Notes: generated by a model from the letters alone, not told the origin. Positions 1,126-32,845 are shown, counted from the stretch's first letter. The stretch: DNA of 32,936 nucleotides from an archaeon (GCA_020053615.1 JAGVMW010000025.1:1-32936), one strand, 5' to 3'. Numbers and translations: made by a program.

Positions 1126-1592
1126 TGAAACTTACCCCTCTCCGTTCGAAAGAATTTCAAGAAGAACTAAATACCAATCATTATTTTCTAAAAGTCAGCA
1201 AGAAAGATACAGTTGAATTATCTGAAACTGAAACCACAAAAATAATTCTGCTCAATAAACAGCCTGCATTTTTTTATCTAACAAAACGATTAATTCCGCA
1301 CTTAAAGTTACTTCAAGCCCACCCAGACTTGCTGAAGAAAATTGTAGTAGATATGGGTGCGGTTAAGTTTATGATAAGTGGAGCTGATGTAATGCGTCCA
1401 GGAATAGTAGAGATTGAAGCTGGAATTGAAAAAGACGCTTTAGTCGTAGTTGTTGATGTAAATAACCACAAGCCATTAGCAGTGGGAATAGCTTTGTTTA
1501 ATATAGAAGAGATGCAAGCGATGGCTTCAGGAAAGGTTATTAAGAATATTCATTATGTAGGGGATGAGATATGGAAAGGGGTATTTGTTTAG
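1122..1592 (+). CDS. PUA-domain RNA-binding protein (MCT-1/Tma20-like, DUF1947+PUA architecture)
   Basis: The C-terminal half (VDMGAVKFMISGADVMRPGIV...VVVVDVNNHKPLAVGIALF...GKVIKNIHYVGDEIW) is a typical PUA pattern. The last codons and the TAG stop (GTATTTGTTTAG) lie inside palindromic element A. Confidence 0.8.
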   Translation: MMKLTPLRSKEFQEELNTNHYFLKVSKKDTVELSETETTKIILLNKQPAFFYLTKRLIPHLKLLQAHPDLLKKIVVDMGAVKFMISGADVMRPGIVEIEAGIEKDALVVVVDVNNHKPLAVGIALFNIEEMQAMASGKVIKNIHYVGDEIWKGVFV

Positions 1593-1738
1593 CTCGGCGC
1601 GGTCAATTTGCTTGCTGAGCGGGGGTACTGCTTGCAAGAAAGTGAGTTACTCGCTAATTTCAAGCTACTTTCTTGTTTCCAACGAGAATACTACGAGAGC
1701 GAGGCGAGGCAAGCGACCGCCGAAAGCTAAACAAATAC
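1581..1738. repeat. Palindromic structured element, copy A (same termini as copy B, different interior)
   Basis: Outer stem GTATTTGTTTAGC (1581-1593) / GCTAAACAAATAC (1726-1738). Next stem TCGGCG(C)GGTC / GACCGCCGA, then GCTTGC/GCAAGC. There is an internal 9-bp stem CAAGAAAGT/ACTTTCTTG. The element is GC-rich relative to its surroundings. Confidence 0.75.
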
Positions 1739-1771
1739 GAAAAAGAGAATTATCTAAGAGGAGAAGTTAAT

Positions 1772-2116
1772 ATGATATTAAACTACACTCGCAACAAAGT
1801 AATTTCAGAGAATGAAATAGTCTGTAAAAGTATCTTCTCGCAGGCATTAGGATTAATGTTTCATCACAAACAAAATTTAATTATGGTGTTTTTCGAAGAA
1901 AGGAGAATCTCTTTGCACAATTTCTTTGTATTCTTTCCCATTGATGTACTGGTGGTGGATAAAGAGATGAAGATAGTGGAGATTAAAAGAGATTTTAAGC
2001 CATTTACATTCTGGAATGCTTCACAGAAAGGAAAGTATGTGATAGAGCTGGGGATTAGGAAAGATTCTGGCGAGAAAGGAGAATATGAGATAGGGGAGAA
2101 GGTGGAGATAAAATAG
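1772..2116 (+). CDS. DUF192 domain protein
   Basis: The ATG at 1772 is preceded by AGGAGAAG. The motifs GLMFHH...MVFF...FFPIDVLVVDKEMKIVEI...KYVIELG fit the DUF192 pattern. The longer track ORF (from 1673) reads through element A and is rejected. Confidence 0.75.
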   Translation: MILNYTRNKVISENEIVCKSIFSQALGLMFHHKQNLIMVFFEERRISLHNFFVFFPIDVLVVDKEMKIVEIKRDFKPFTFWNASQKGKYVIELGIRKDSGEKGEYEIGEKVEIK

Positions 2117-2183
2117 ATTATTTTCTGTTTTGTATACTTAATTACTACACAACCATAAATATACTTCTCGCTCTGAGTGTGGT

Positions 2184-2831
2184 ATGAAATGGAAAATACC
2201 ACTATACATCGTTGGGATTGGAACCCTCGCTGCCGGAGCCTTTGGCGTCGGAGTGTATTCCAGTGGCGAAGTAAACAAGACCTACCAAAAAGTGCAAGAA
2301 TCAGTATCTTGCCTGTATTCTGCCGAAAACTGCCAAAAGCAGGATAACACCGAGGCAGAACTAAACACAGCAGAACCGAAATTGGTATCTGCTCCTACTA
2401 CTGACGACAAGTATGCTGCAGAAATAAGTTCTCTGCGTGAAGAAGTTAAAGCTCTGCAGCAGAAATCACTTAATCCACAAACTAACTTATACTCACAGAA
2501 AGATGTGATACATGTAACAATCCCAATTGATGCGCTTCTATCTCGTCTAGGCAAAGAATATGCACCCGGAACCAACAGCTACCGCTCGTTTACGGATAAA
2601 ATCAAAGAGTTCTGTGTAGAAAAAACATTTGAAGAAGGAAAGAAAGAGTTAGAACGAAAATTTCAACACACACATGAAAGTATCGACCAGGTAATTGATT
2701 CTACTACATCTTTCTTAGGAGATAAAGTAACTGACTATCGCAGAAGGCTGGGCGATGCTATTTATCCAGAAGGATCAGCAAGCTCAGAACTAAGCAAGCC
2801 TGAACTAAATCAACCAGAGGGAGGAAACTAA
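2184..2831 (+). CDS. Hypothetical N-terminally membrane-anchored protein (first gene of the + operon)
   Basis: One N-terminal hydrophobic helix (IPLYIVGIGTLAAGAFGVGVY) is followed by a charged, helical region. A TATA-like ATAAATATA lies at 2155-2163, about 25 nt upstream of the ATG. Confidence 0.6.
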   Translation: MKWKIPLYIVGIGTLAAGAFGVGVYSSGEVNKTYQKVQESVSCLYSAENCQKQDNTEAELNTAEPKLVSAPTTDDKYAAEISSLREEVKALQQKSLNPQTNLYSQKDVIHVTIPIDALLSRLGKEYAPGTNSYRSFTDKIKEFCVEKTFEEGKKELERKFQHTHESIDQVIDSTTSFLGDKVTDYRRRLGDAIYPEGSASSELSKPELNQPEGGN

Positions 2832-2832
2832 A

Positions 2833-3288: not shown

Positions 3289-3300
3289 ATTAAAAAAAAC

Positions 3301-3432
3301 GTATTTGTTTAGCATCTTCAAAATCCTCGTCAATAAATTTCGCTGGAGCCGCATCCCCGTATGGGGCAAGTCCCCCTGCGGCTCTCGAAGTGATATCGCA
3401 GGGATTTTGACCTTATGATGCTAAACAAATAC
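3301..3432 (-). repeat. Palindromic structured element, copy B (inverted relative to C/D/E)
   Basis: 16-bp outer stem GTATTTGTTTAGCATC/GATGCTAAACAAATAC, and 9-bp second stem TCAAAATCC/GGATTTTGA. The reverse-complemented core, GCAGGGGGACTTGCCCCATACGGGGATGC, is flanked by GAGCCGC/GCGGCTC. The element is flanked exactly by AAAAAAAAC (3292-3300 and 3433-3441). Confidence 0.85.
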
Positions 3433-3466
3433 AAAAAAAACAAAAACCAAACAGGAGGGAAATAAA

Positions 3467-3865: not shown

Positions 3866-3891
3866 AATCTAATCACCGGAGGTGAATTAAC

Positions 3892-4986: not shown

Positions 4987-5015
4987 TTTGTTTTATTTTT
5001 ATTTGTTTTATTTTT
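4986..5015 (+). repeat. Perfect 15-nt tandem duplication (ATTTGTTTTATTTTT x2), T-rich, between two operon genes
   Basis: 4986-5000 and 5001-5015 are identical, then TTAAACC and the ATG at 5023. Oligo-T tracts are archaeal termination signals, so this could be an internal terminator/attenuator and/or a promoter for the AAA gene. Confidence 0.5.
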
Positions 5016-5022: not shown

Positions 5023-6534
5023 ATGGTAAAAACAATTGAATTCACCAGAGCAGAACTTAACAGTATTGAATATACCATTGTTTCCAAGCTGAATGGGGCA
5101 AGATATTCCCTAGACGAAATAATTGGGCAATACTCAGAGGGGAATAGTGGAAAAAGAGTTTATAACGCCATTAAAGACTTTGCTTCCATACAACGCTGTG
5201 GAATTGAAAAGTTAAAACAAGAATATAAATCTTTAGCGGTACCTCTAATTACTGTTTTAGCTGCGGAAACAGCTTCAGCAGAGATGGGTTACTCTGGCAA
5301 CGAGGAAGTTAGCTGTTTTGGTAATAAAGCATTAAACTACAAGCAGGAATGGCCTTATTATTTAACTGATCCATTAGACATATACAAGCCATTTTTAGAA
5401 GAATCTAGATCCCGCCCCAAGCTAGAAGCACTAACCGAATCTTTTTTCAGCTGGCTTTCCCGAACTGCAGCAGCGGAAGTATGCAAAGATCCAAAGTTCA
5501 AAGATAAAGATTGGGAAGTTACCGTTGCCGGAAAGAAATATCAAGTAGAAATAAACCCGGACAAAACTGCTCCCAAAAGAAAAGTGGATGTAGATTTCTC
5601 TTCTTACATCGTAAAACCAGACTCAAAAAGTACTAACGAAGCAGATTACATTTATGGCCACGAAGCAGTAAAAGAAGTATTCCAAAAGACAGAATTAAGA
5701 GTAAGAAACTGGGAATTTTACACCGGATTATTTAACCCAAAAAATCTTTTCCCAAATATCTTATTACACGGTCCGCCAGGAACAGGAAAAACCACTTTGA
5801 TTAGAAGCCTAGCTGCAAGATGTGGTTTTGAATACCGACCAATACCGTGTGCTGAACTATGCAGCAAATACTTTGGTGAAAGCGCTAACATTCTTCGAGG
5901 ACATTACAAAGATGCCAGCATTACTATCGATAAAGGGAAGAATAAAGGAGTTATTATTTTTTTGGACGAGATTGATCACATCGCTTTAAGAAGAGACACC
6001 GATTCAAAAGAACAGAATACGTTAGTTACTACTTTAAATGATCTGCTGGATGGAAATAGTACCAAGCCCGGATTAATTACCATTGGTGCAACCAATGTAC
6101 TTCATCTTATTGACGAAGCTATTTGGAGCAGATTTGCCGAGAAGTTATATGTAGGATATCCTAAAACAGATGAAGGAATTATTGGAATACATAAAAAGAT
6201 TATCCAGAAGATAGAAGATTATTCCAGCAAAAAACAGTTTGGATCTCTAGACGTTGATAGAATACTTAATTTTTCACGTAAAGATGAACGATTTAAGTCA
6301 GGAAGAGTAATTAATTCAATATTATACAAGTGTGTAACTAATGTTACTGATGGATATGTTATTAGTACAGAACAACGAAAAGAAAAACCATCCAAAGATA
6401 AAATTCCTCTAGTAAAAACTGAAGACCTGACCGAAGCTTATGATAAATACAACTTAGACGAAGAGGATGAAAAGCCAGGACGCATGGGTTTTACTGCTGG
6501 AAATGCCACCAAGACTATTACTAAAATTATCTAA
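5023..6534 (+). CDS. Classical AAA-family ATPase with a unique ~240-aa N-terminal domain
   Basis: Walker A LLHGPPGTGKTTL, Walker B VIIFLDEIDHIA, sensor-1 IGATN, and second region of homology IDEAIWSRFAEKLYVGYP. Confidence 0.85.
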   Translation: MVKTIEFTRAELNSIEYTIVSKLNGARYSLDEIIGQYSEGNSGKRVYNAIKDFASIQRCGIEKLKQEYKSLAVPLITVLAAETASAEMGYSGNEEVSCFGNKALNYKQEWPYYLTDPLDIYKPFLEESRSRPKLEALTESFFSWLSRTAAAEVCKDPKFKDKDWEVTVAGKKYQVEINPDKTAPKRKVDVDFSSYIVKPDSKSTNEADYIYGHEAVKEVFQKTELRVRNWEFYTGLFNPKNLFPNILLHGPPGTGKTTLIRSLAARCGFEYRPIPCAELCSKYFGESANILRGHYKDASITIDKGKNKGVIIFLDEIDHIALRRDTDSKEQNTLVTTLNDLLDGNSTKPGLITIGATNVLHLIDEAIWSRFAEKLYVGYPKTDEGIIGIHKKIIQKIEDYSSKKQFGSLDVDRILNFSRKDERFKSGRVINSILYKCVTNVTDGYVISTEQRKEKPSKDKIPLVKTEDLTEAYDKYNLDEEDEKPGRMGFTAGNATKTITKII

Positions 6535-6536
6535 CC

Positions 6537-8147
6537 ATGAATGATTACGCCATAATCGATAAAGTGTACAATTTCTTTGTGGACAAGAACGAGATGGAAG
6601 GCTATTTGAGAAGAATAAATAAGGGAGAACTACCCGAACTTGAAACAATCAACTCATTTTTAGATAATGGAGAAAGATATTCTCATAATCCTACTTTATA
6701 TCATTCATTAGAACTAAGTTTAGCAGAATTAAAAAGATTACAAGCCAGATTTAATTTAAAGCATAACCAATCAAATACGTTTAGAGCCAAAACAGTAATA
6801 ATAAATGCAGAATACGTTGAAGATACTGCTTCAAATCAAGACAACATGCATCAAGATAACGTAACTCCAATTACATCAATCCAACCTAAAGTACTTTCTT
6901 CACCATCCAAATCAGAACCACAAACCTCACCATCATCAACCATTTCTTACACTCAACCATCCCAAGCCGCCAAACGAATTATCACACCATTAACTCTCAC
7001 TCCCACCTCAATACATTCTTTCTTCTCCTTTCAGGGTATCGTCGGAGAAGAAAAAAATCGAGAATTAATGATGTACGGTTTAGTTGCCCGTGCAAACATG
7101 GGTATAGAAAGTCTTTCCGGCAGCGGAAAATCTGCTTTGTTGTACGCTTTGTTAAAAGCACTTCCTCCAGAACGATACTTAACTATTCATCAAGCTACTG
7201 ACCGCAGTTTATATCACAATCCAAAAATAAATTCCAGCAATTATATCATAATTCCAGAACTACAAAAAATATTCAGCAAAGACATTGAAGAAATTATCAA
7301 AAACTTAACCGAAGGAGTAGATTCTACTTATACCAGAACAAATTCCAAGCGAAATGGTGTAGATACATTCAAGATAAACAAAAAACCAATATTATATTCA
7401 TTTGCCATAACTAACAAACATCTAAAAGAACGCGATGACGAATTCTACCGCAGGTTTATCATATTCCATACTGACATCAGCAGAGAGCAGAATAAGAAAG
7501 TAGCTTTAAGCTTTGCCGAAAGAGAACTGCAGCCAGAAGCAACCACAGATGATTATTCAGCTTGGCAAAGCCATATCTCAAATTGTTTGGATTCAACTGC
7601 GGAAATAAAGAATCCATTCTTACCGCACATAATTGAATCACTCCCACCAGAAATTTCCGAACAGGTGCGGTTTAGGTCATCGGTAAAATATTTGCATCAA
7701 TTAATCTGCGGAGCAACTTTATTTAATTCTACTGCAAATAACAATGTAGATAAAATAAACCAGAAATATCTTTTCTCTGGACTGTCTGATAATCTCAAAG
7801 TGACAGAATTATACGAGCAAGTATTAGTAGATAATTTGTATGGGTTAAGTGTAATAGACCGAGCTTTGCTAAACCTTCTCGACGATGAACCAACTCACAC
7901 TGGAGCTGTAAAACAGAAATTTGGAGAAGTATATGCAACTTCTATCCCTATCGAAGATTCATTATCTAAGCTCACTGCCAGTGGTCTGGTAGGAAAAGAG
8001 GGCGACGCATATCGGTTAAGAATTGCTCCAAAGATAACCCTCAACCCTGAACGGGCTTTGGACGCAGCCGATAAGTTCATGCAGCTGCACTACCCCAAAT
8101 ACCGTGACCAATGGCATGAGCTATGTTTAAAGCAGATGGAAACATAA
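6537..8147 (+). CDS. P-loop NTPase with a Ser/Pro/Thr-rich linker and a probable C-terminal winged-helix domain
   Basis: The start is 2 nt after the AAA stop. Walker A SLSGSGKSALLYALLKAL, Walker-B-like NYIIIPELQ, and an RRF motif (DEFYRRFIIFH). The C-terminal LLNLLDDEPTHTGAVKQKFG...SLSKLTASGLVGKEGDAYRL looks wHTH-like. The family is unresolved. Confidence 0.7.
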   Translation: MNDYAIIDKVYNFFVDKNEMEGYLRRINKGELPELETINSFLDNGERYSHNPTLYHSLELSLAELKRLQARFNLKHNQSNTFRAKTVIINAEYVEDTASNQDNMHQDNVTPITSIQPKVLSSPSKSEPQTSPSSTISYTQPSQAAKRIITPLTLTPTSIHSFFSFQGIVGEEKNRELMMYGLVARANMGIESLSGSGKSALLYALLKALPPERYLTIHQATDRSLYHNPKINSSNYIIIPELQKIFSKDIEEIIKNLTEGVDSTYTRTNSKRNGVDTFKINKKPILYSFAITNKHLKERDDEFYRRFIIFHTDISREQNKKVALSFAERELQPEATTDDYSAWQSHISNCLDSTAEIKNPFLPHIIESLPPEISEQVRFRSSVKYLHQLICGATLFNSTANNNVDKINQKYLFSGLSDNLKVTELYEQVLVDNLYGLSVIDRALLNLLDDEPTHTGAVKQKFGEVYATSIPIEDSLSKLTASGLVGKEGDAYRLRIAPKITLNPERALDAADKFMQLHYPKYRDQWHELCLKQMET

Positions 8148-8154: not shown

Positions 8155-8287
8155 GTACGTGCATAGCATCATAATGTCAAAATTCATTCAGAATATGCCT
8201 ACGAAGGTGACAGGGGGACTTGCCCCCTACGGGGATGTCGCCCCAACGATAACCCTCACCAGAATTTTGAAGATGCTATGCATGTAC
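8155..8287 (+). repeat. Palindromic structured element, copy C
   Basis: 16-bp outer stem GTACGTGCATAGCATC/GATGCTATGCATGTAC (one G:T), bulge ATAATG, and 9-bp stem TCAAAATTC/GAATTTTGA. Stem GGTGAC/GTCGCC (one T:G) surrounds the core AGGGGGACTTGCCCCCTACGGGGAT. Confidence 0.85.
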
Positions 8288-8322: not shown

Positions 8323-9894
8323 ATGATGAACACACAAACGGATGCATATATGTATTGGGTAGATAACAAAAGATGCTTAGAAGAAATTATTGATAGAAGA
8401 GAAGCATTAACCAAACCAGAACAACTAACTGCAGATAATTTAATTCGAGCACAATCCGGATTAAGAAGATTACAAGACGAGATGATTCATCTGCAAAAAA
8501 CCTGCGGAGGAGATTTGCCGCCGTCAAGCTACCGAGAGATTAAAGAAGCTAATCACGCTTTTGAAGAGATTGTAGAAGCCCTGTCTCAGAAACGAAAAGA
8601 ATATTTATCATTAGCTCCACAAATTAGTTTAGATATTAAAATATGGCACAATTCTACTGAAGCAAATAAAGAAGGAGAACTAACCTCGGTCATGGAGCTT
8701 TGTTCCAAGTATCGTTGCGCTACTGATTTTGACCCCGAATTCTTCCCGGGAAAAACACAATTAAATCAGTTCTATGCAGATCTATCTGAACTAACATTCA
8801 TAGCCTCTCCACGAGTGGCAGAAGAATACCTTCAAAGATATACCCAATTAACCACAATTGATGAAGTGATTAAATTTAAACAGGGATTTGAGCAGAATTT
8901 TTGGCAGAAAGCAGATAGAATAAAACATAAGTTAAATCAAAAGTATGAAAGAAAAATAAGTAAAGAAGAACAGGCTATATTAAATGTGCATCCTTTAGGA
9001 ACTTTTACTTTGATTAAAGAGGACATCAAAAATATTACAGAAAAAACAGCAGAATTCCAAAAGACGAAGAAAGAGTTATGGCAGGGAATTACTGCGCTTC
9101 GTGATGACTTGGTGTATCTTAGCAATAATGTTCCGGCACTAAACCAGATTTATGTAAATAAAGTATTAACTCCGATTAACCCAATTAAGTCAGTGGCAGA
9201 TTACTTATTGTTAAAGAAAGATTCAGCTGATTACCAGAAGTCAATTGGGAATTTGAAAAAGCTTAAAGAAGAAAAGAAGAAAGAACTTACCAAATTAGCT
9301 AAAACTGAATGTTCTGAATTAACCCAGACTATAACGACAGATATGAATTCACAGGATTATACCAAATTTGAGAAATATACTAACAGAATAATTGAACTTA
9401 AAGATTACTGCAAACAATTAGGAGAAGAGGAAACTTATGCAGTGCTACAGACTCAGTTCGACCGCATTGATAGGATAAATAAATATGTAGCTGCAATCCA
9501 ACCGAAAGAAAAGCTAGAGTTAAGGATAACTGTAGGAGAATATGAAACTAAACCTACAACTAAAATACTTGATATCGAGCCAAAAAAAGTGGATGCTGCA
9601 TCCAATAAAGATCTTCCTTGGATGCCAATTGTCACCGAGCAGGATTTAACCGTAGCCGGGTTTAGATATTCCCGGTATGCCCAAGACAATTCGCTGAAAC
9701 AATTGTGCCTGCAGATTGCTGGAGTGAACGAGAAAGGAGAATATTCCTGTACTACACTTAAAGATAGAGTAAGCAGTATAGACAAACAAAAGTTTAGGAT
9801 AGTTGGTGAAAAATTGTTAGGTGATGATGAAATTATTTACAGTGCGCTGAAGGAAGGGATTGGGAAGTGTGGATACCAGCGAAAAGTAGTTTAA
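8323..9894 (+). CDS. Hypothetical large helical protein (last gene of the + operon)
   Basis: SD GGAGGTG lies 7 nt upstream of ATGATG. The protein is long, charged and helical with no TM segment. I recognise no family. Confidence 0.7.
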   Translation: MMNTQTDAYMYWVDNKRCLEEIIDRREALTKPEQLTADNLIRAQSGLRRLQDEMIHLQKTCGGDLPPSSYREIKEANHAFEEIVEALSQKRKEYLSLAPQISLDIKIWHNSTEANKEGELTSVMELCSKYRCATDFDPEFFPGKTQLNQFYADLSELTFIASPRVAEEYLQRYTQLTTIDEVIKFKQGFEQNFWQKADRIKHKLNQKYERKISKEEQAILNVHPLGTFTLIKEDIKNITEKTAEFQKTKKELWQGITALRDDLVYLSNNVPALNQIYVNKVLTPINPIKSVADYLLLKKDSADYQKSIGNLKKLKEEKKKELTKLAKTECSELTQTITTDMNSQDYTKFEKYTNRIIELKDYCKQLGEEETYAVLQTQFDRIDRINKYVAAIQPKEKLELRITVGEYETKPTTKILDIEPKKVDAASNKDLPWMPIVTEQDLTVAGFRYSRYAQDNSLKQLCLQIAGVNEKGEYSCTTLKDRVSSIDKQKFRIVGEKLLGDDEIIYSALKEGIGKCGYQRKVV

Positions 9895-12357: not shown

Positions 12358-13698
12358 TTATTCTGTTTTTGGCTCACTTTCTGATTTGTCTGGAGTTATT
12401 GCTGTTGGTTCAGTGATAACTTCAGTTGTAGTACCACTTGACCCTATCGGTACGGCTGCTGATTCATCTGGTACTACAGCTGGTTTAGTACCGTTTGACT
12501 TTGGTGACACACCTTTCTGCGTAGAGGGTAATTTAGTTTTGACTCCAACTGATTTAGACTTATTACCATAGAGGTCAGTACATTCTACTTTAGTATAAAT
12601 TACATTTCGGTATAATGGACAAGTGTTCAAAGGCAATTTATAATCATTCATAATATTATCCAAAGATTTAGTGACAAAAGGAGAATTTGGACAGGTGATA
12701 TTACAGGTAACTGGTTCTGTTTCTCCATTTATCTCAATAGTATAATACTTTGAACTTATTTTAGCTTTAGTTACTTCATTTATTTTACTTAATGATACTT
12801 TGGGAGGAGTCTTATCTACATCCGTAGGAATTACTGCATGCATATTCTCTACTGCTAGTTTAGCTGTATCGGATGTAGCTTCATTTACATTAGCACCAGT
12901 TGCCTCAGCTGCTGCTGGCTGACTTAGTGGCACTAGTTTAGTAATCTCTGATATTAATGATAGTTTATTTGAGATGTAACTTTTAACTTCTCTAAGACAC
13001 TTGCTTATCTTGTCACTCTTCGGTATTTCCGGAGGACGATAAGTAGAAGCAATCTCTGATTCTGCCACTCGCCTTTGATGTACATGAACCTCGGGTGCTT
13101 TATACCATATCAACAGCCCTATTCCAGCACAAACTAAACCGCTTAATAAGCCAGATCCAAGCATAGTTGCATAATTTGGTCTCCTCAACAACGTATTAAT
13201 CTCATAGTTTGCCACTTTTTCCTCTACCTGAGTCCTATCATCTTTAGTTTCATCAGATGTAGATGAAGAGTGCAACTTTAAAATATCTTTAAGCAACTTA
13301 GTATTCGCACCGACTTCATTCGATAATTGTTCTAATGTAACAGGAGCAGTGATTTGATTATAAGCGTCATAGCTTTCTCTTACCAGTCTAAGCACTGCAT
13401 TGGAATCGGTTTTCTCACCTAAGCCTAAGACATCAACAAGACTGGAATAAAATTGTAAATACTGTCCTAAATATTGTTGACTCACTTTAATCTTAGCAGA
13501 TAACTCATCATAAGTAGCCGTTTTAGGCAGCCCAACATGAATTTTCAGTTCGGTTAATTTATCTTCTAACGAATGAATATATGCATCTCTATCATCAATA
13601 CTTTTTGACAGCTTACCCACTACACTACCTAAAGCAGAAAATCGTTCATCTAATGATAGTGGAACTTCACTTTCAGTTGTGTCAGTTGTAGCGTTCAT
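12358..13698 (-). CDS. Coiled-coil / single-TM protein with an extracellular Ig-like module
   Basis: I prefer the MNATT start (ATG at 13698), 1 nt after the upstream stop. It has an N-terminal module LSLDERFSALGSVVGKLSKSIDDRDAYIHSLE, a TM helix LLSGLVCAGIGLLIWY, and an ectodomain ending TDLYGNKSKS. Confidence 0.7.
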   Translation of the reverse strand: MNATTDTTESEVPLSLDERFSALGSVVGKLSKSIDDRDAYIHSLEDKLTELKIHVGLPKTATYDELSAKIKVSQQYLGQYLQFYSSLVDVLGLGEKTDSNAVLRLVRESYDAYNQITAPVTLEQLSNEVGANTKLLKDILKLHSSSTSDETKDDRTQVEEKVANYEINTLLRRPNYATMLGSGLLSGLVCAGIGLLIWYKAPEVHVHQRRVAESEIASTYRPPEIPKSDKISKCLREVKSYISNKLSLISEITKLVPLSQPAAAEATGANVNEATSDTAKLAVENMHAVIPTDVDKTPPKVSLSKINEVTKAKISSKYYTIEINGETEPVTCNITCPNSPFVTKSLDNIMNDYKLPLNTCPLYRNVIYTKVECTDLYGNKSKSVGVKTKLPSTQKGVSPKSNGTKPAVVPDESAAVPIGSSGTTTEVITEPTAITPDKSESEPKTE

Positions 13699-13699
13699 G

Positions 13700-14317
13700 T
13701 TACTTAGGATTTTTCTTAAATCGCCCCCATACTTTAACTCCAAAATTATATAGTGGATCTTCCTCTTCTTCAAATATTTCTGCTACTTTAACGCTTGCTT
13801 TATATAATCTGGAGTATATACTACTCATTCCACCACCAACATAATTGAATGCCAACTTTAATTTAGGGGAATACCATTTTGACTTTCTTTTTTCCTCGTG
13901 ATAATCTGGAGATAATACCTCAATTAAGTAATCTAATTTTTTGTCCAGTAAAGGAAGATATCCTTTAATTTCATTAATTTTAGTAGATAACTCTTTTAGG
14001 GGAATACTTTTCTTAATTTCTTCTAAAAAAGGTATTATTTTAGTTAACATCTCTTCCAGAGAGGTCAAAGAGTGATATTTTTCATCAATACGTGTTAGTT
14101 TATCATCAATTTTAGTATAAAGTTCCAATGATATAGCACTATGGATATCTTTTGCAGCTTTTAATTGGCCTTCTAAATTATGGATATATACATTTCTATC
14201 ATCAATGCATTTTGACAGCTTTCCCACTACACTGCCTAAAGCTGAAAATCGTTCTTCCAAAGATAATTTAATTGCACTTTCCGAGGCATCAGTTTTTTCG
14301 TCCATTTTTATTACCAT
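13700..14317 (-). CDS. Coiled-coil protein sharing the N-terminal module of the downstream gene
   Basis: LSLEERFSALGSVVGKLSKCIDDRNVYIHNLE is followed by a helical region. I chose the start at 14317 (TAA-N-ATG spacing to the PP2C stop). 14305 and 14341 are alternatives. Confidence 0.6.
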   Translation of the reverse strand: MVIKMDEKTDASESAIKLSLEERFSALGSVVGKLSKCIDDRNVYIHNLEGQLKAAKDIHSAISLELYTKIDDKLTRIDEKYHSLTSLEEMLTKIIPFLEEIKKSIPLKELSTKINEIKGYLPLLDKKLDYLIEVLSPDYHEEKRKSKWYSPKLKLAFNYVGGGMSSIYSRLYKASVKVAEIFEEEEDPLYNFGVKVWGRFKKNPK

Positions 14318-14318
14318 T

Positions 14319-24726: not shown

Positions 24727-26559
24727 ATGACTACGTTTTACTCCGAATTCATCTCTGCACTTAAACATCAACGACTCTCAGCTAAGCAATACGACAAGCT
24801 AAAGCTAGAACTGGTCGTAAAGTACAAACTTAATCAAGTCCCGACTAATATAAACGTTTTACTGCACTGCACTCCAACAGATTTCTCTAAATTGAAAGAT
24901 AAGCTTATCAGCAAACCCCAACGCACTATTTCAGGAGTGGCTCCGGTAGCGATTATGACTAAGCCTTTTCCCTGTCCGCATGGAAAATGTATTATGTGTC
25001 CTGGTGGTGTGGATAGCGTATTTGGAGATGTACCTCAATCATATACTGGCAAAGAACCAGCAACTATGCGAGGGATAAGAAACAATTTCGACCCATACCT
25101 GCAAGTATTCAATCGCTTAGAGCAATATATTTTACAAGGTCATAATTGTGATAAAGTAGAATTAATTGTTATGGGAGGCACGTTTCCTAGTTTTCCGACA
25201 GAGTACCAAGAAGAATTCATTAAGTATGCATTTAAAGCGATGAATGATTTTTCAGGATTGTTTTACGATAAACATGGAACATTCAACCTGCTCAAGTTCA
25301 AACGTTTCTTTGAGCTTCCGGCAGATATTGAAGATGATTTACGAATGAAAAGAATACAGGAAAAGCTGCTTGGGGTTAAAGGGAAGTGCACCTTAGAGCA
25401 GCAACAGCACCTAAATGAAACCGCTAAAATCAGGTGCGTCGCCCTCTGCATCGAAACTCGTCCGGATTATGGAACTTTGAAAGAAGGAAATGAAATGCTA
25501 CGCTTAGGCTGCACTCGAGTAGAATTAGGAATACAAAGTGTATACGATGAAGTGTTAAAGAAGATAGAACGCGGACATACGACTGCTGATACGAAGAATT
25601 CTATCCGAATCCTGCGCGACTTGGGGTTTAAAGTAGCGGCACATTACATGCCCGGACTTCCAGATAAAGATTTTAAGAGGATTAGTTATCACAAAGATTT
25701 AACCGGGATGAAACAATTATTTTCTGATTCCGATTACAAGCCAGATATGCTGAAAATATATCCATGCATGGTCTCGCGTGGAACAAAATTATATTCTCAT
25801 TACCATGCCAAGAAGTTTACCCCCCTAAACGCTGAGGAAGCAGCTAAGTTATTGGTAGAATTCAAACAATTTGTACCGGAATATTGCCGAATTATGCGCA
25901 TTCAACGAGATATTCCTACTACTCAGATGACTGCCGGAGTGGAAATGACTAATCTACGACAGTATATGACTCAGAATTACGAAGTAACCTGTAAGTGCAT
26001 CCGCTGTCGTGAGCCGAAAGGAAGAAAGATTAGTTGGAGCAAAGTTAAGCTGAATGTGATGGAATATACTGCTTCGCAGGATAAAAGTATGTGCATAGCA
26101 TCATCAAGTCGAAATACTACGATTATCGAAGCTGGCGCGTCGCGGGGAGATGCCCCCTACGGGGACGCAGCGCTTGCGAATTCACATCCAGAATTTCGAA
26201 GATGCTATGCACATACAGGAAAAGAGTTTTTTATTTCAGCAGAAGATACTGAGAATGATTTGCTCATTGGATTTATCAGAATGCGTTTTCCATCGCAGGT
26301 TCTGCACTCCGAGATTACCTCAGCCAGCGCTTTGATACGAGAACTGCATGTTTATGGCACGGCTACTGGAATCGGCGAAGAAGGGAGTATACAACATCGC
26401 GGCTGGGGTAAGAAGTTATTACAGAAAGCAGAAGAGATTGCTAAGAAGGCAGGGAAAGATAAATTGGTGGTTATTTCCGGAGTAGGGGCACGGGAGTATT
26501 ACCGCAAGTTAGGATATAAGTTGGAAGGAGCATATATGACCAAAAAACTACAAACTTGA
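24727..26559 (+). CDS. elp3: Elp3 (radical-SAM / GNAT tRNA U34 modification enzyme), carrying a 44-codon in-frame insertion
   Basis: Radical-SAM cluster motif PCPHGKCIMCPGG, VMGGTFPS and CIETRPDY, and GNAT motif QHRGWGKKLLQKAEEIAKKAG. The open frame reads through palindromic element D at 26086-26217. Confidence 0.9.
   Translation: MTTFYSEFISALKHQRLSAKQYDKLKLELVVKYKLNQVPTNINVLLHCTPTDFSKLKDKLISKPQRTISGVAPVAIMTKPFPCPHGKCIMCPGGVDSVFGDVPQSYTGKEPATMRGIRNNFDPYLQVFNRLEQYILQGHNCDKVELIVMGGTFPSFPTEYQEEFIKYAFKAMNDFSGLFYDKHGTFNLLKFKRFFELPADIEDDLRMKRIQEKLLGVKGKCTLEQQQHLNETAKIRCVALCIETRPDYGTLKEGNEMLRLGCTRVELGIQSVYDEVLKKIERGHTTADTKNSIRILRDLGFKVAAHYMPGLPDKDFKRISYHKDLTGMKQLFSDSDYKPDMLKIYPCMVSRGTKLYSHYHAKKFTPLNAEEAAKLLVEFKQFVPEYCRIMRIQRDIPTTQMTAGVEMTNLRQYMTQNYEVTCKCIRCREPKGRKISWSKVKLNVMEYTASQDKSMCIASSSRNTTIIEAGASRGDAPYGDAALANSHPEFRRCYAHTGKEFFISAEDTENDLLIGFIRMRFPSQVLHSEITSASALIRELHVYGTATGIGEEGSIQHRGWGKKLLQKAEEIAKKAGKDKLVVISGVGAREYYRKLGYKLEGAYMTKKLQT
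26086..26217 (+). mobile_element. Palindromic structured element, copy D, inserted in frame within elp3
   Basis: 16-bp perfect outer stem GTATGTGCATAGCATC (26087-26102) / GATGCTATGCACATAC (26201-26216), bulge ATCAAG, second stem TCGAAAT/ATTTCGA, GCGTC/GACGC, and core GGGGAGATGCCCCCTACGGGGA. With one flanking A on each side the length is 132 nt. Confidence 0.85.
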
Positions 26560-26598
26560 GCGTTTGCTTTTTATATAACTTCAACTTTACTTCTAAAC

Positions 26599-27375
26599 AT
26601 GCTCAAAAGAGGTCAGATAACTGTATTTATTATACTTGGAATATTAGTGTTTGGCACAATTATCGCTTTAGTTTACTTCAAATCAGAAAAAGCACAGAAA
26701 GAGTTAGGGACAGAAGAAGCTTTGGTTGAATCTGGTCCTGCTAAAGAAGCCATCAAAAGTTATGTTGAATCGTGCATCAAGAATACAGCGAAAGAAGGGA
26801 TTCTGGAGAACGGTTACCACGGCGGATATTTTATACTTCCCGAACAATCAACAATCGGGTTATTTGACAACGTGCCGTATTACAAAGTGTACTCACAAGA
26901 TTTCTCTCCTTCGGATGAAGTAATTGCATCTGAATTGGGAAAATATGTTGATGCTCTGCTTGATTTGTGCATTAATGATTTTCAACCGTTTATGGAGCAG
27001 GGATACAATATTACTGTTGGAAATCCCTCTTCAGCAATTAAATTATCACTAACTAAACTTAGCATAGAAACTACACTTCCGTTAACCGTGACATTAGGAA
27101 CTACTGTTACTGAAATATCTTCATTTTATGCCGAAGTTCCAACAAAAGATTATTATAATGATTTAGAAGTAGCTAGAGTTATAGCCAATTCCACCAACAA
27201 GATGATTTGTCTAAGTTGTTTCTCGGACTTGGCAGTAGAAAATGATTTGTTTGTAGGAACTTATGCTATTTCTAATGATACTTATCTGTTTGAAATTACT
27301 GATAACAATTATGTTATTGATTATAACAACTTTAAGCTAAGATTTGCGGTGAGGTATAATGAAAGTACCGAATAG
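26599..27375 (+). CDS. Hypothetical secreted or pilin-like protein (possible class III signal peptide)
   Basis: The N-terminus MLKRGQ-ITVFIILGILVFGTIIALVYF resembles archaeal prepilin-type signals (basic residues, then Gly, then a hydrophobic helix). Confidence 0.55.
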   Translation: MLKRGQITVFIILGILVFGTIIALVYFKSEKAQKELGTEEALVESGPAKEAIKSYVESCIKNTAKEGILENGYHGGYFILPEQSTIGLFDNVPYYKVYSQDFSPSDEVIASELGKYVDALLDLCINDFQPFMEQGYNITVGNPSSAIKLSLTKLSIETTLPLTVTLGTTVTEISSFYAEVPTKDYYNDLEVARVIANSTNKMICLSCFSDLAVENDLFVGTYAISNDTYLFEITDNNYVIDYNNFKLRFAVRYNESTE

Positions 27376-29734
27376 AGTTGTAAGTATGATTGTACTTCTT
27401 GCTTTACTTAGTTCTCTCTCTTTTGCTGAGGAGACTTTCGACGCTAATAAATTTGATTACAATAATCCCGATGGCTATAACGCTTTAAGTGTAGATGAAT
27501 GGAAACAGCTGAATCAGAAACTAGTTCCGATAGACCAAATTAGTTTAATTCCTCCGGAAGTGCTGGATTACAGCCAAATTAAAGATGATGAAGCCAAACG
27601 TCAAGCTCTTACAATAGAGCAAATTAAAGTTAATCTGGAAAAGATTGATAATTTGGCTGAAGTTAATGCAGAAAATGCTCGACAGGCAATTAGCGAAGAG
27701 CATTCAGTTAGTGTGGTTAGCTTTGGAAAGTCAGCAAAAATCGAAAACGGTGTGCTTAAATCCGATGATGGCGATTTTGTGTTCTCTGGTAAAAACGGTT
27801 GGGAGATAGAGGTTGATAAAGAAACGGGAAGAATTAAAGTTCTTAAACCAAAAGAGGTAAGTGCAGAAAGTATTTCGCAACAAGATTATTTTACCCTAAC
27901 TGAAGAGACCAGTTATACTCCTGCAGATGGTTCTGCAATTAAAGTTAAGCAGTTGAGTTTCAAAGATGGGAAGTCTTATGTTCAAGCCGGGGAAGAGGCT
28001 ACGATTGGAGATTATAAAATTCCGGCTACTGGCAACTCAGTGGATATTTATTTTGATGCCACAGTTAAGCCAGAAGGGAATTATGTGGTGATAACGGATA
28101 ACGGCTTAGATATTGGAACGACTAAAGACGGAACAGTTAGAGTAATTCCACAGCCAGGGAATAAGTTGTTTGGGATGGTGAAGCGGCAGTATGAAAAAGA
28201 CGCAGACGGGAAGCCGATTAAAGATAAGTTTATCTGGGTGCCGGATGATAGAGATACACTTTCAATAACAGTTTCCGGAGGAGATAACTTGGAAGTTATT
28301 TCTCGTGCAGAAGAGGGCAAAACCACCCTAATAAAGCACCAGAATGGAGACGGAAAAACAAGTTTAGAAAATGGTCGAATGGAAATAAACTTTCTGGCAG
28401 GGGAATTAACTGTGATTCCACCTAAACCATTCGAAGGAAAGGCTGGCCCCATAGACCAGAGGAATAGTGTTGCCATGGAATTAGTCTCAGACGGTTTAGC
28501 AGATCTTTTTAGAACAAGCTCTTCTAATAGATATATTTTATTAAGAAATGATAAACCTTTTGGGGGGAATAGTTTGGGGTTGGAAGTTTCTGATTTTATT
28601 GAACCAAATATGATGAAAACTTTAATGGATATGCAGATGAAATACCCCAAAATAGATTTTTCTATCGGAATGGCAACCGCAGAAAGTAGGGAAGTGTATC
28701 TTAAAAAAGGATATGGCAATCCTACTCCCCCAGAATACCAAGAGATTACAGCTAATTTAGCTCAGACCACAGACCAATGGTTAAGCGGAAAAACTGGCAT
28801 GAATAAATATATCTCTCAAGTATACTTTGGTACGCAATTAAATGCAGGAGGTACTTTGTTAACCATGTCCATAGGAGAAAGAATGATGGACAGTTCCACT
28901 ATTTCCTCTAATCCTGCAATCAGAACCGGAACTACACCTTTAGGCACATTAAATCATGAATTTAAACACATTCTGAAAGGTTACGTAATCTCTAAAGAAG
29001 CATCCTCTGTGCATCTTGAGGATTCACCGGAATATCTTGTTGAAGAACAATCAGTTCTAAAAAAATTTGAATCAGGAGAGATAACTGAAAACGAATTAAA
29101 CAGTCAGATTATGAAATTAGGAGACAAACACTTCAAAGAGACTATTAAATCGAGAGGTATCGAAAGGGAAGAAAACAAGATAGCAGTTAGTCTTGCTGAT
29201 GAAGTGTACATTGATTCTTCTAAAGATTTTGAAATGATTGTAGAAGAAGTAACAGCAGTAGCAAGAAGATCACAAGACAAAGGAAAAGGTGTAACTAACG
29301 ACGAAAATTTAAAATCACTTATTTTAGAAAGTAAAGATTCCCCCCTCAGAGCGAACTATATCTATCAAATGGGTGCTAATTTGGACTATTGGGCTGAAGA
29401 AAAGATTGACGGGGCGGAAGAATTAAGAAAAAGATATGTTAATTTAATACGGGGAAAAACTGGTTTTTATCCGTATGCATTTAGGGTTTACGGAGAAAAT
29501 TATGAAGAAATATTTCCATTGTATAGTGAGTCGCCCATTTCCGAAGCCAAAAAATGTTTATCTTGTGCCAGGTCAGAATACGACCTAGCAATGAGTACTG
29601 ACCCTCCAGACTGGCTTCGTAAACAGGCCGAAGACAGATATTATCAAATTATGGGAGGCAAAGATGGAGCATATTGCAAAGAACATGGATGTGAACCATG
29701 CAAAACATACAAACTTACTTGTAACCCAATGTGA
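27359..29734 (+). CDS. Large secreted protein with an HExxH motif (possible zincin metalloprotease) and a Cys-rich C-terminus
   Basis: SD GGTGAGGT is upstream. It has a signal-peptide-like MIVLLALLSSLSFAEE, the motif LGTLNHEFKHILKG, and C-terminal CLSC...CKEHGCEPCKTYKLTC. It overlaps the previous gene by 17 nt. Confidence 0.7.
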   Translation: MKVPNRVVSMIVLLALLSSLSFAEETFDANKFDYNNPDGYNALSVDEWKQLNQKLVPIDQISLIPPEVLDYSQIKDDEAKRQALTIEQIKVNLEKIDNLAEVNAENARQAISEEHSVSVVSFGKSAKIENGVLKSDDGDFVFSGKNGWEIEVDKETGRIKVLKPKEVSAESISQQDYFTLTEETSYTPADGSAIKVKQLSFKDGKSYVQAGEEATIGDYKIPATGNSVDIYFDATVKPEGNYVVITDNGLDIGTTKDGTVRVIPQPGNKLFGMVKRQYEKDADGKPIKDKFIWVPDDRDTLSITVSGGDNLEVISRAEEGKTTLIKHQNGDGKTSLENGRMEINFLAGELTVIPPKPFEGKAGPIDQRNSVAMELVSDGLADLFRTSSSNRYILLRNDKPFGGNSLGLEVSDFIEPNMMKTLMDMQMKYPKIDFSIGMATAESREVYLKKGYGNPTPPEYQEITANLAQTTDQWLSGKTGMNKYISQVYFGTQLNAGGTLLTMSIGERMMDSSTISSNPAIRTGTTPLGTLNHEFKHILKGYVISKEASSVHLEDSPEYLVEEQSVLKKFESGEITENELNSQIMKLGDKHFKETIKSRGIEREENKIAVSLADEVYIDSSKDFEMIVEEVTAVARRSQDKGKGVTNDENLKSLILESKDSPLRANYIYQMGANLDYWAEEKIDGAEELRKRYVNLIRGKTGFYPYAFRVYGENYEEIFPLYSESPISEAKKCLSCARSEYDLAMSTDPPDWLRKQAEDRYYQIMGGKDGAYCKEHGCEPCKTYKLTCNPM

Positions 29735-29791
29735 ATTTACTCAAAACCAAGAAAAAACTATATAAAGCTCCCCAATAATTAATCTAAAACC

Positions 29792-29929: not shown

Positions 29930-29952
29930 GAAGCAAGGTAATTATTATTCTA

Positions 29953-30711: not shown

Positions 30712-30719
30712 AATTAGTC

Positions 30720-31157
30720 TTATATGCTGGCTTCGTTCTTTTCAAAGTTAACGTTCAATTTCTCTAACAACCCATTAAACCCGATTATCAATGGGATCTG
30801 GTCGGTTTCAGCAAGAAAGGCACAGATTTCAAGTTCTTTTGTCTGGTTTCCGTTTTCATCAACTATTAGTGAAGTAACTTTTCCGATATCTCCTAAGATA
30901 GAGCAACCTTCCTGTTTTGATATTCCATATATCTTATACCGCTTAATTTTCTCATGCACCAGTTCTTTCCAAAGTGACAGAGGAATAACTGAAGTATGCG
31001 CACCGGTATCAACAATTGCAGAATAAGGTTGACTCCAACCAGATTTAGTTTTAAACTGAACTCCGCATTTTAACCTAACAATAGTATAATTGTCTATTTC
31101 AGCATCTCTGAACGTCTCAAAAAACAAATTAACTCTGCCCATAAATGTGTTCTCCAC
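30720..31157 (-). CDS. Retropepsin-like aspartic protease
   Basis: It has the hallmark AIVDTGAHTSVIP (D-T-G-A) and a C-terminal LIIGFNGL. An alternative start is at 31142. Confidence 0.75.
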   Translation of the reverse strand: MENTFMGRVNLFFETFRDAEIDNYTIVRLKCGVQFKTKSGWSQPYSAIVDTGAHTSVIPLSLWKELVHEKIKRYKIYGISKQEGCSILGDIGKVTSLIVDENGNQTKELEICAFLAETDQIPLIIGFNGLLEKLNVNFEKNEASI

Positions 31158-31359
31158 ATTCTACAAACAATACTGGAACATCTTCCTTGCCAGTTTTTAC
31201 CCGAGCTTCCATCTTCACTCGAGAAAGATCCGAACCAAAAGAGACAACTTCTTTGTCTTGTATAGCCACCCACAAGTCTTTATATCTCAATAAAAGTTGA
31301 GTATGATGATTCTCCCCCCACCGTAAGTCCTCCCAGAATTCCTGCATGGCTTTATTCAT
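31129..31359 (-). CDS. Small protein resembling DUF5678, overlapping the protease gene
   Basis: LLLRYKDLWVAIQDKEVVSFGSDLSRV fits the (Y-x-G/D-x-WVAI-x-D-x-x-VV-x-x-G-x-D) pattern I associate with DUF5678. SD GGTGA is upstream. It overlaps the downstream protease ORF. Confidence 0.6.
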   Translation of the reverse strand: MNKAMQEFWEDLRWGENHHTQLLLRYKDLWVAIQDKEVVSFGSDLSRVKMEARVKTGKEDVPVLFVECGEHIYGQS

Positions 31360-31553
31360 TCATTATCACCAGCATTAGAAAAACTATTGGAATTATTAAA
31401 CTTTCTGGTGCAATTTTACATCACTGGATTAGTTGTCATTTCTGAGATATATACAACAAATGCAAAAAACTTATAAAAGAATAGTAAAAGATTATTTTTA
31501 GGGAACTTTTTCCGATTCAAAAGAAGTTATTAGGCGAATGCCTCACTTTTGAT

Positions 31554-31573
31554 GCAACTTTTGTAAAAGTTGC
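31554..31573. promoter_or_regulatory. 20-bp near-perfect palindrome GCAACTTTT-GT-AAAAGTTGC upstream of the peptidase gene; operator-like
   Basis: The 9-bp arms are exact reverse complements with a 2-nt centre, too tight for an RNA hairpin and typical of a dimeric DNA-binding site. It lies 23-42 nt before the ATG at 31596. Confidence 0.35.
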
Positions 31574-31595
31574 TTTGGAAGAGTTTTTCTGGGCG

Positions 31596-32750
31596 ATGAT
31601 TAGAATAAACCTCAACTACAAACAAGAACCCCTCTCACTAGCTGAAAGAATATCCAAAAACAATGCTGTAATGTATATTCAAGATGGATATGATAAATTG
31701 AGGAAAAAAAATACCTTCTATGAAAATCTCTTGCGGAAAATGGCATGCACAGAGAATGAACCCCCCTCTACTTTAGCTCTTAAGCTCAAATCATCTTTTT
31801 CATTTCCTTCTCTTTCAGTTCCCGCTTGGGCAAAAACAGCCCTTTCTTTTGCTACCGTAGCAGTTATGGGTATAACCGGAGGGATGTGTGTTACGGCTTA
31901 TTATACCAATCATCAGCCTTCAGTAAAACTTGGTGAAATGACCGCTATAGCCAGCACTTACAATCAAATATCAAAAGATAATATAGAAAGAGCTGCGTTA
32001 GGATTACTTACCCAAGATAAATTACACGAATTTGCTTCTAATTTAGAACCGCCGCAACTAAATCTGCCAGATACTTCTGGTTTAGAATTAGCCGTAGAAG
32101 AAATGACAAATAAAGCCGCAGTTTGTTATTCTTTAAATCCAATTGAAGCTCCTAATCCTATTAATCAATCAAAATATTTTAAACATTTGAAATGGGCAGA
32201 GATGCCTGCGACGGATTATTTGAACATTCCTGCCCGAAAACAACGAACTAAGTTTGGAGCAGTTGAATTGATTAACAGTGTGGCTCTGGCGGCTTGTGCT
32301 ACTAATGTTTACTATTCCTATTCTGGTTATTCTCCAGTACTTACGATTGGTGATTTAAGCGGTGCAAGGGGGGGTAGACTTCCTCCGCACCTAAGTCATC
32401 GTCACGGAATAGACATTGATATAGGACACTATTGGTACGAAGATGGCGAGTACAAGAGCGGATTCAGGGGATTAAGTATGAAGATGCTCACTTCAGAAAC
32501 TTTGGAAGCCAACTGGCGATTTGTTAAATCATTGCAAGATGCTCCTGGCTCAGAGATAGAATACATTTTCTGGAGCCAGCGATATGTTTATCCGTTGAAA
32601 AAGTATGTGACCGAAAAGTATGGTAAAGAAGAATGGCAGAAATACGGCAAAGCTTTTTACCCTGACCGAAAACATGGCGACCACATGCACATCAGGATAG
32701 AGATACCGCCTAAACCGGCAGAGGAAGAGAAGGAAGGGAAGTGTTGTTAA
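31596..32750 (+). CDS. Membrane-anchored LAS-superfamily metallopeptidase, MepA-like (penicillin-insensitive murein endopeptidase type)
   Basis: Zinc-ligand motifs GGRLPPHLSHRHGIDIDIGHYW (H-x6-D) and HGDHMHIRI (H-x-H) are as in MepA/peptidase M74. It has one TM helix, LSFATVAVMGITGGMCVTAYY. The track ORF begins at TTG 31575; I prefer the ATG at 31596. Confidence 0.75.
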   Translation: MIRINLNYKQEPLSLAERISKNNAVMYIQDGYDKLRKKNTFYENLLRKMACTENEPPSTLALKLKSSFSFPSLSVPAWAKTALSFATVAVMGITGGMCVTAYYTNHQPSVKLGEMTAIASTYNQISKDNIERAALGLLTQDKLHEFASNLEPPQLNLPDTSGLELAVEEMTNKAAVCYSLNPIEAPNPINQSKYFKHLKWAEMPATDYLNIPARKQRTKFGAVELINSVALAACATNVYYSYSGYSPVLTIGDLSGARGGRLPPHLSHRHGIDIDIGHYWYEDGEYKSGFRGLSMKMLTSETLEANWRFVKSLQDAPGSEIEYIFWSQRYVYPLKKYVTEKYGKEEWQKYGKAFYPDRKHGDHMHIRIEIPPKPAEEEKEGKCC

Positions 32751-32765
32751 GTTATAATTTATTTA

Positions 32766-32845
32766 TATTTGTTTAGCATCATCAGGTTGAAATTCTCTTT
32801 AATGAGTTCAGCTAGAGTGACAGGGGGACTTGCCCCACAATGTCA
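32766..32845 (+). repeat. Palindromic structured element, copy E (clear left half; right half degenerate or lost)
   Basis: TATTTGTTTAGCATC, then ATCAGG, then TTGAAATTC ... GTGACAGGGGGACTTGCCCC matches the left arm and core of B/C. The sequence then diverges (ACAATGTCA...) and a T-run follows at 32857-32866. Confidence 0.65.

Follow-up and report, generated by a model that had tools for sequence, protein, structure and literature searches.

The stretch of DNA analyzed here, 32,936 nucleotides of one strand from an archaeon (GCA_020053615.1 JAGVMW010000025.1:1-32936; hereafter the window, whose coordinates are used throughout), has an archaeal gene content that includes Elp3, diphthine synthase, a PUA-domain protein and a TrmB regulator, and it carries five copies, designated A to E, of a strongly self-complementary DNA element. 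[quoted passage not shown] Their density amounts to about 150 elements per Mb (five copies in 33 kb). A first-pass annotation of the sequence had reported the five copies, and all of them are present at essentially the claimed coordinates; the ends of A, B and C stand as given, while those of D lie 1 base further inside on each side and E begins at 32765. The elements, and the features immediately connected with them, are the following.

1581..1738, plus strand: copy A, a 158-bp foldback with termini GTATTTGTTTAGC / GCTAAACAAATAC and without the apical core
3292..3300, no strand: left target-site duplication of B, AAAAAAAAC, identical to 3433-3441
3301..3432, minus strand: copy B, a 132-bp single hairpin, core at 3354-3375 on the minus strand
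3433..3441, no strand: right target-site duplication of B, AAAAAAAAC
8155..8287, plus strand: copy C, a 133-bp single hairpin, core at 8214-8235
24727..26559, plus strand: Elp3 gene (radical SAM and GNAT domains, Pfam), with copy D inside
26079..26086, no strand: left target duplication of D, decayed, GGATAAAA, from the alignment with the related locus L004
26087..26216, plus strand: copy D, a 130-bp single hairpin in the Elp3 coding sequence with in-frame read-through, core at 26144-26165
26217..26224, no strand: right target duplication of D, AGGAAAAG, equal to the empty-site sequence of L004
32765..~32838, plus strand: copy E, a truncated left half comprising terminus, bulge, second stem and the first half of the core

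Copies B, C and D are built to a common plan, whose stems, bulges and core read as the first-pass annotation had described: a 16-bp outer stem leads into a 6-nt bulge, a second stem of 7 to 9 bp, a variable and poorly pairing middle segment, a GC-rich closing stem and, at the tip of the hairpin, a 22-nt apical motif (GGGGAnnTGCCCCnTACGGGGA), the core of the list above. The bulge is present on the 5' arm only, opposite a single A, and reads ATAAGG in B, ATAATG in C and ATCAAG in D. Both imperfect pairs of copy C are indeed G:T, and copy B has the opposite orientation to C, D and E, as reflected in its scores with the covariance model R1 (140.2 bits on the minus strand versus 52.3 on the plus strand). 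All complete copies possess terminal inverted repeats of 13 to 16 bp that are perfect or near-perfect, and the termini of the family occur in the variants GTATTTGTTTAGC...GCTAAACAAATAC, GTATGTGCATAGC and GTAATACTTCAG. Copy A combines the 13-bp termini of B with a different foldback interior, in agreement with the earlier description, and its ends and stem plan are found again in the homologues L140 and L147 (155 bp). Copy E opens with an A in place of G and ends where a minus-strand open reading frame (ORF) that runs off the window stops.

Relatives of these elements were collected by scanning the apical motif against one genome per species, which yielded 70 loci (referred to by L numbers). 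Six of them are bacterial and lack any hairpin context, about as many as chance would yield with 19 bases specified in ~600 Gb, while the other 64 are archaeal, mostly labelled Woesearchaeota or Nanoarchaeota and in some cases Methanosarcinales or Euryarchaeota; in the archaeal loci that were inspected, the motif sits at the tip of a long hairpin. In the Woesearchaeota metagenome-assembled genome (MAG) JACQSP01 the motif is found on at least 13 contigs, several of which end within the element, and eight sites are present in MAG CAZIUU01, which holds L004. The CAZIUU01 loci (L004, L020, L035, L039, L051, L055, L061) carry the label 'uncultured Methanosarcinales archaeon', which may be unreliable because the family is otherwise found in MAGs of Woesearchaeota and Nanoarchaeota and the gene content of the window is DPANN-like. 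Window-type single-hairpin copies were extracted from the window and its relatives (24 copies), and 23 of these were aligned. Rfam matched no family at the gathering threshold across the whole window, and when one copy and one composite element were searched at E-values up to 10, two chance-level matches were the only result. We found no description of this element family in the literature, only the census-level mention of a MITE-dense Woesearchaea genome; in that 2024 census, the genome ranks among the most MITE-dense archaeal genomes with 105 elements per Mb (PMC11602168).

That the elements have moved can be seen at their borders. Among the 23 single-hairpin copies, flanking 8-bp repeats are perfect in 10 and agree in at least 7 of the 8 positions in 14; the mean flank identity is 6.6/8, compared with 2.6/8 for control flanks shifted by 8 nt, among which no perfect match occurs. 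The duplicated flanks are A/T-rich and vary from copy to copy (e.g., AGAAAATC, CATATTCC, TAGAAACC, GTTTGTTT), and therefore represent target DNA and not a part of the element itself. At copy B, the expected 8-bp duplication corresponds to the last 8 nt of the 9-nt repeat at 3292-3300. An unoccupied site is provided by L004, a locus that is syntenic with the window between 26.2 and 32.8 kb at 81-87% nucleotide identity: its Elp3 gene lacks copy D, the empty site reads GCATCTGGAGGAAAAGAATTC, and the surplus of the window gene over that of L004 is exactly 138 nt, the sum of a 130-nt element and an 8-nt duplication, or 46 codons. In the spacer behind the M74-peptidase-like gene, an element is present both in the window (copy E) and in L004 (reverse strand, ~2735-2870), but the two are of differing subtypes, since the full-length L004 element has a D-like interior and degenerate termini and E a C-like interior; this suggests either independent insertions into one spacer or replacement by conversion. 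Taken together, the size of the elements, their lack of any coding capacity of their own, the inverted termini, the duplications of fixed length but variable sequence, the dispersed copies and the polymorphism are the hallmarks of MITEs. The first-pass annotation had considered the conservation of structure unusual for MITE ends recognized by a transposase, a view that finds no support in elements with inverted termini, 8-bp duplications, an empty site and a high copy number.

The comparison with L004 also brought further differences to light. Between Elp3 and diphthine synthase the window contains about 3.2 kb of additional DNA (26560-29788) with two genes that have no Pfam match (26599-27375 and 27359-29734). 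A second additional segment (30713-31578) carries a minus-strand gene for a retropepsin-like aspartyl protease (30720-31157), and at the corresponding position L004 has a 38-bp remnant with family termini (GTAATTGTTTAGC...CAACAAATAC).

The position of the window copies relative to their neighboring genes had led the first-pass annotation to envision a role at gene 3' ends, and its description of these positions is correct: the distance from the preceding stop codon is 12 nt for B, 7 nt for C and ~14 nt for E, and A overlaps such a codon. Elements of this kind would act as terminators or mRNA stabilizers and be kept at gene ends in the manner of the bacterial REP/BIME sequences, for which the very stable hairpins would be well suited. 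We regard such a function as very unlikely. When simple, crude gene calls were applied to the 70 motif-bearing copies in related genomes, 15 copies were placed between divergent genes, 6 between convergent genes, 30 in tandem spacers and 6 inside ORFs, and the 30 tandem-spacer copies are oriented 12 with transcription and 18 against it. There is consequently no bias to gene 3' ends or to the direction of transcription, an outcome that the annotation itself had named as refuting its proposal. Copies B and C are inverted relative to each other although both lie in tandem spacers, that of C being a 175-nt stretch between the genes 6537-8147 and 8323-9894; no T-run follows the hairpins of the window copies, and copy D is located inside a gene. 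Without the element and its duplication, the spacers of B and C measure only ~35-38 nt, so that compact spacers account for the nearness of the elements to stop codons. At copy A, the TAG with which the PUA-domain gene (1122-1592) stops sits within the terminus GTATTTGTTTAGC (1581-1593), and the final residues of the protein, GVFV, are encoded at the junction and within the terminus; the insertion thus replaced the original 3' end of this gene.

Copy D was correctly placed within a coding sequence by the earlier analysis. It interrupts the Elp3 ORF between the C-terminal domain of the radical-SAM part and the acetyltransferase domain (Pfam), keeps the frame, contains no stop codon and thereby adds 46 residues to the protein; in a comparison with the PDB, the insert falls into an unaligned stretch of Elp3 (residues 431-494) that has a counterpart of 25 residues in 6ia8. 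These 46 stop-free residues at a position where solved Elp3 structures do not align would be in keeping with coding modules of the type known from Rickettsia, which are inserted in frame and selected for the peptide they add. Across the 23 copies, 17 of 138 frames are open (12%, compared with 8% in shuffled sequences), any one frame is open in at most 8 of the 23, only 6 of the 70 copies lie in ORFs by the crude calls, and four of the five window copies are found between genes. Since no frame is shared across the family, copy D is a lucky survivor that gives no evidence of a family-wide coding function, and we consider selection for an added peptide extremely improbable. Removal of copy D at the RNA level as a bulge-helix-bulge intron was also contemplated and was discarded on inspection: such archaeal introns are marked at the sites of excision by a 4-bp helix lying between two 3-nt bulges, and copy D has an uninterrupted 16-bp basal helix whose purine-rich flanks cannot pair. 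Elp3 contains a second stretch of ~47 residues without a counterpart in solved Elp3 structures (residues 175-221, encoded by 25249-25389), which is unrelated to the hairpins.

The single strands of the elements are predicted to fold with minimum free energies between -55.8 and -60.1 kcal/mol (z between -4.4 and -8.5), and in 200 shuffled sequences no fold was as good. In the alignment of 23 copies, 97.0% of the cells at paired positions are indeed paired, versus 86.8% with shuffled partners and ~40% with slid partners, and changes on both sides of a pair have occurred at 19 of 38 pairs versus 11.8 in shuffles; neither the observed pairing nor the number of double changes is reached in any of 500 shuffles. 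Among the helices, variation is greatest in the closing stem, with both-sided changes in 7 of its 8 pairs, and in the termini three positions change in concert on both arms (TTTGTT to TGTGCA). The proposal of the first-pass annotation that structure rather than sequence is conserved is thus borne out, complementarity being well above that of the shuffled and slid controls. All combinations of terminus subtype and closing-stem subtype occur, and this mosaic pattern indicates that copies exchange segments with one another.

Conserved pairing of this kind does not prove the existence of an RNA. Where the transposon ends of a DNA palindrome match, other causes also make its arms co-vary: the two ends of a transposon must suit one and the same enzyme, and template switching corrects palindromes. 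The correction of imperfect DNA palindromes towards perfection by template switching is an established mutational mechanism.

The termini of the window elements are not restricted to the single hairpins. In addition to copy A, L140 and L147, small foldbacks with the same termini and other interiors are present in L002, L063, L070, L054, L081, L087, L132 and L174, and most of the same-termini elements whose flanks were read possess duplications with 7 or 8 matches in 8 positions, while none is recognizable in L140, L132 and L159. Between its two termini, an element of the hairpin type holds one or two modules of ~120 nt. Composite elements of 290 to 385 bp consist of a terminus, a hairpin module X, an inverted module Y and a second terminus; they have 8-bp duplications in L062 (AAAATATT), L031, L011 and L030, and L067 represents a single-X element with the duplication GAAGAACC. 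The duplications of L062, L031, L011 and L067 are perfect or near-perfect. When a composite is read inward from either end, the same module strand is encountered first, a symmetric layout of the kind left behind when an insertion sequence loses its middle. Copies B, C and D have been reduced still more, the terminus being fused directly to module Y.

Among the loci searched, the only long element with window-type termini (GTATTTGTTTAG...) is found in L128 (contig Ga0315279_10003031, 11214-12738); it comprises 1525 bp, is flanked by a perfect 8-bp duplication (GTACATAA) and has as its only gene one for TnpB (OrfB_IS605 with a Cas12f1-like TNB domain). TnpB proteins usually belong to elements of the IS200/IS605 or IS607 type, which lack inverted termini as well as duplications, and the L128 protein looks like the passenger of a different kind of transposon. 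A tblastn search with it retrieved no second copy.

The presence of TnpB, normally a passenger of IS200/IS605 elements, raises the question of whether the family is mobilized as single-stranded DNA by a tyrosine HUH enzyme, as in the PATE derivatives of IS200/IS605 and in the REP/RAYT system, or consists of recombination sites that are recognized by their fold, like the attC sites of integrons. In the minus strand of the core, a GTAG precedes a small GC-rich hairpin (GGGGCAAGTCCCC), an arrangement resembling the GTAG-tagged REP sequences; structure is kept rather than sequence, and in L043 and L067 small inserts of two hairpins immediately follow the core on its 3' side. We nevertheless hold this type of mobility to be highly improbable. 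IS200/IS605, REP and attC systems yield neither terminal inverted repeats nor target-site duplications, both of which are present here; no gene for a Y1/HUH enzyme or an integrase was seen, and the copies are scattered instead of being arrayed.

The hairpin inserts themselves are observed as a pair of small hairpins of ~60 nt (AATGAAGC...GACTTCATT; GAAAT.AAATCGYTGTTT.ATTTC) immediately 3' of the apex in L043 (1816-2011) and L067 (~5815-6040), two copies that are normal in other respects, and the pair recurs within a 340-bp element of L132 that is unrelated except for its termini. The pair could represent either a mini-element nested in the hairpin, with the apex as its target, or an optional enlargement of the hairpin itself. 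Such inserts and the TnpB element are hints of a larger system for which these ends would be the basis.

The interpretation of the five copies as MITE-like mobile DNA has to be weighed against several observations that speak against it. A search of ~0.46 Mb of DNA from related archaea and of about ten genuine metagenome loci gave no transposase gene flanked by these termini. A search of all loci for inverted termini with 8- or 9-bp duplications at a spacing of 0.6 to 4 kb returned the TnpB element only, and an all-versus-all comparison of ORFs across the loci uncovered no recurring transposase-like protein. In viral contigs, the core had 0 matches, and the 120 matches of GTATTTGTTTAGCT are all chance occurrences without an inverted partner. 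A metagenome scan with GAAAGCTAAACAAATAC likewise returned mostly chance matches; those listed include at least ten or so genuine small elements and the TnpB element, and no transposase is among the matches listed. Copies C, whose flanks match in 5 of 8 positions, and D have no recognizable duplication now. Moreover, the apex is common to families with unrelated termini (GGCTCTGTCCCGAAT, GCGTTATTGAAAAG, GGTTTTGTTGAAAAG, GCTTTGGTGAAAATG, GGGGTTGTTGCGAAAT and others), several of which make 9-bp duplications (e.g., TGTAAAATA, GTCGCAGAG, TTCTCATAG, TATATTGAA), and its variants retain a C-run complementary to both G-runs, a feature that purely selfish DNA would not predict: GGGG/CCCC/GGGG has become AGAG/TCTC/GAGA in L055 and L030, and in L062 the segment CTCCC is perfectly complementary to GGGAG. 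Finally, isolated helix mismatches, counted strictly as those with three perfect pairs on each side, comprise 16 G:T and 5 A:C when the strand carrying GGGGACTTGCCCC is read (p = 0.027, with copies that are not independent of one another); such an excess is expected from selection on one folded strand, and is suggestive, though weak. A first, looser count (G:T 57, A:C 72, other 205) was dropped, as it was dominated by unpaired regions.

The shared apex with its variants and the excess of G:T mismatches are also part of the case for an alternative in which the module with its apex is a functional RNA or a folded single-stranded DNA that travels as cargo on transposon ends and is kept by selection on its fold; roles as a signal for transcript processing or insulation, as a regulatory RNA or as a protein-binding hairpin can be imagined. 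Its complementarity has survived many double changes, and a covariance model derived from the window type alone finds full-length matches in families with other termini, so that the architecture recurs whether duplications are 8 or 9 bp long. The near-invariance of the apex, with variants that co-vary in all three runs, and the retention of the asymmetric bulge and of a right-arm mini-hairpin point in the same direction, as does the inward-facing arrangement of modules in the composites, by which the same hairpin strand would be transcribed from either side. The apex is, furthermore, not needed for mobility: elements with the same termini that lack the motif also carry target duplications, and the apex is part of the hairpin module and not of the transposition signal. 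We rate a functional module of this kind as unlikely, though deserving of serious consideration. The copies are randomly oriented with respect to genes, and promoter-side spacers are commoner than 3' ends; compensation within a palindrome can arise by mutation alone, through template switching or arm-to-arm conversion, and from the need for matching ends; and the G:T excess shrinks to ~13 versus 5 when evident sister copies are combined. Nor are single loci maintained, as seen from the decay of copy E and the different subtype of the L004 element in that spacer. In addition, the seeming universality of the motif is in part inflated, since the families were found by searching with this very motif.

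Other conserved features of the module are likewise asymmetric. The bulge of the 5' arm is common to families and has the consensus (A/C)TnA(A/G)G, in many families GCGAGC segments face each other and would form tandem G-A pairs, and relatives have a mini-hairpin on the right arm, CGA-NN-GAA-NN-GAG, that co-varies at its NN positions (GC/GC, AC/GT, AT/AT). Families with 9-bp duplications (L034, L052, L066, L032/54/57, L008, L036, L059, L022) have an extra mini-hairpin on the right arm only, whose two stem pairs co-vary from family to family; it is often GCGAAGC, a heptamer that forms an exceptionally stable DNA mini-hairpin. The simplest account of the module is that of a conserved subterminal part of one diversified insertion-sequence family. 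That a ~120-nt module has instead been an independent functional RNA or single-stranded DNA device, joined repeatedly to different transposon ends in DPANN archaea, we consider unlikely. Readings as a kink-turn or a purine-motif triplex were dropped on inspection, and so was that as a hammerhead ribozyme, for which CUGAUGA...GAAA is present on the minus strand without a stem I.

For the MITE-like mobile family that we favor, the following course of events can be envisioned. A transposase acting in trans would bind the termini and move the element; it may be of the DDE type, as the 8-bp staggered cut is fixed. Insertion, in either orientation, duplicates 8 bp of an A/T-rich target. A parent insertion sequence that kept both ends and lost its gene would have given rise to the composites with their inward modules. 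The complementarity of the arms might persist because foldback is favored, for instance by bringing the ends together, because template switching corrects the arms during replication, or for both reasons. Copy D would then have landed in a part of Elp3 that probably encodes a loop, where 130 plus 8 nucleotides keep the frame.

DPANN genomes are tiny and gene-dense, and at the density seen in the window these elements constitute a major, so far undescribed source of genome change in this lineage: they supply one stop codon (copy A), lengthen the tRNA-modifying enzyme Elp3 (copy D) and break metagenome assemblies. Their recognition prevents false calls of RNA genes and terminators in genome annotation and offers a marker for binning and for relating genomes to one another. 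For the study of mobile DNA, the near-invariant apex across several classes of transposon ends and the occurrence of TnpB within inverted termini and a duplication are of particular interest.

Two further regions of the window should be mentioned. Near copies A to C, the segment 133-8147 holds genes for an AAA ATPase and a protein with a KilA-N domain as well as a weak match to DUF5906 (primase/helicase-associated), and may belong to an integrated element. A direct repeat of 160 nt with 78% identity (13554-13713 and 14161-14320) corresponds to the N-terminal regions of two tandem paralogues on the minus strand (12358-13773 and 13700-14341).

When the family is compared with known systems, it shares with the REP/BIME sequences and attC sites the retention of complementarity, the asymmetric bulges and the GTAG beside a GC-rich hairpin, but those systems depend on RAYT or IntI, and neither the enzymes nor the corresponding arrangements were seen in the window family. 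Rickettsia palindromic elements (RPEs) are palindromic elements that lie in frame within genes (PMC10969869). Their likeness to the window family is confined to copy D, a palindrome of ~130-150 bp in frame in a housekeeping gene; unlike in RPEs, in-frame insertion is exceptional here, there is no family-wide frame, and inverted termini and 8-bp duplications are present.

Possible partners of the family can be sought among known insertion sequences. In the IS5 family, the IS903 group makes 9-bp and the ISH1 group 8-bp duplications. The terminus GGTTTTGTTGAAAAG of L052, which has 9-bp duplications, resembles the inverted repeat of IS903, which we take to be GGCTTTGTTGAATAAATC, a sequence found at 100% identity next to aph(3')-Ia in Tn903-type plasmids; this resemblance is a lead only. 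The window terminus GTATTTGTTTAGC has the TTTGTT core in common with IS903, but matches it in just 9 of 16 positions, and the fetched loci contain no IS5-family transposase with these ends. The termini of IS66/ISBst12 elements begin with GTA and their duplications are 8 bp long, and an element of this group would be an equally possible partner.

Prokaryotic MITEs are small and gene-less, have inverted termini and a fixed duplication, occupy A/T-rich intergenic targets in many copies and have transcripts that are predicted to form stem-loops (PMC10969869). These general features of the foldback MITEs (Correia/NEMIS, ERIC, Nezha, and SM1-SM4 of Sulfolobus) are also those of the window family with its elements of 130-160 bp. 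Unlike these foldback MITEs, the window family has a DPANN host, pairs from end to end and lacks a partner insertion sequence among the loci searched, and its 22-nt apex and stem plan span families with differing termini and duplication lengths. The family probably represents a new superfamily of foldback MITEs in DPANN archaea, one with an unusual degree of structure.

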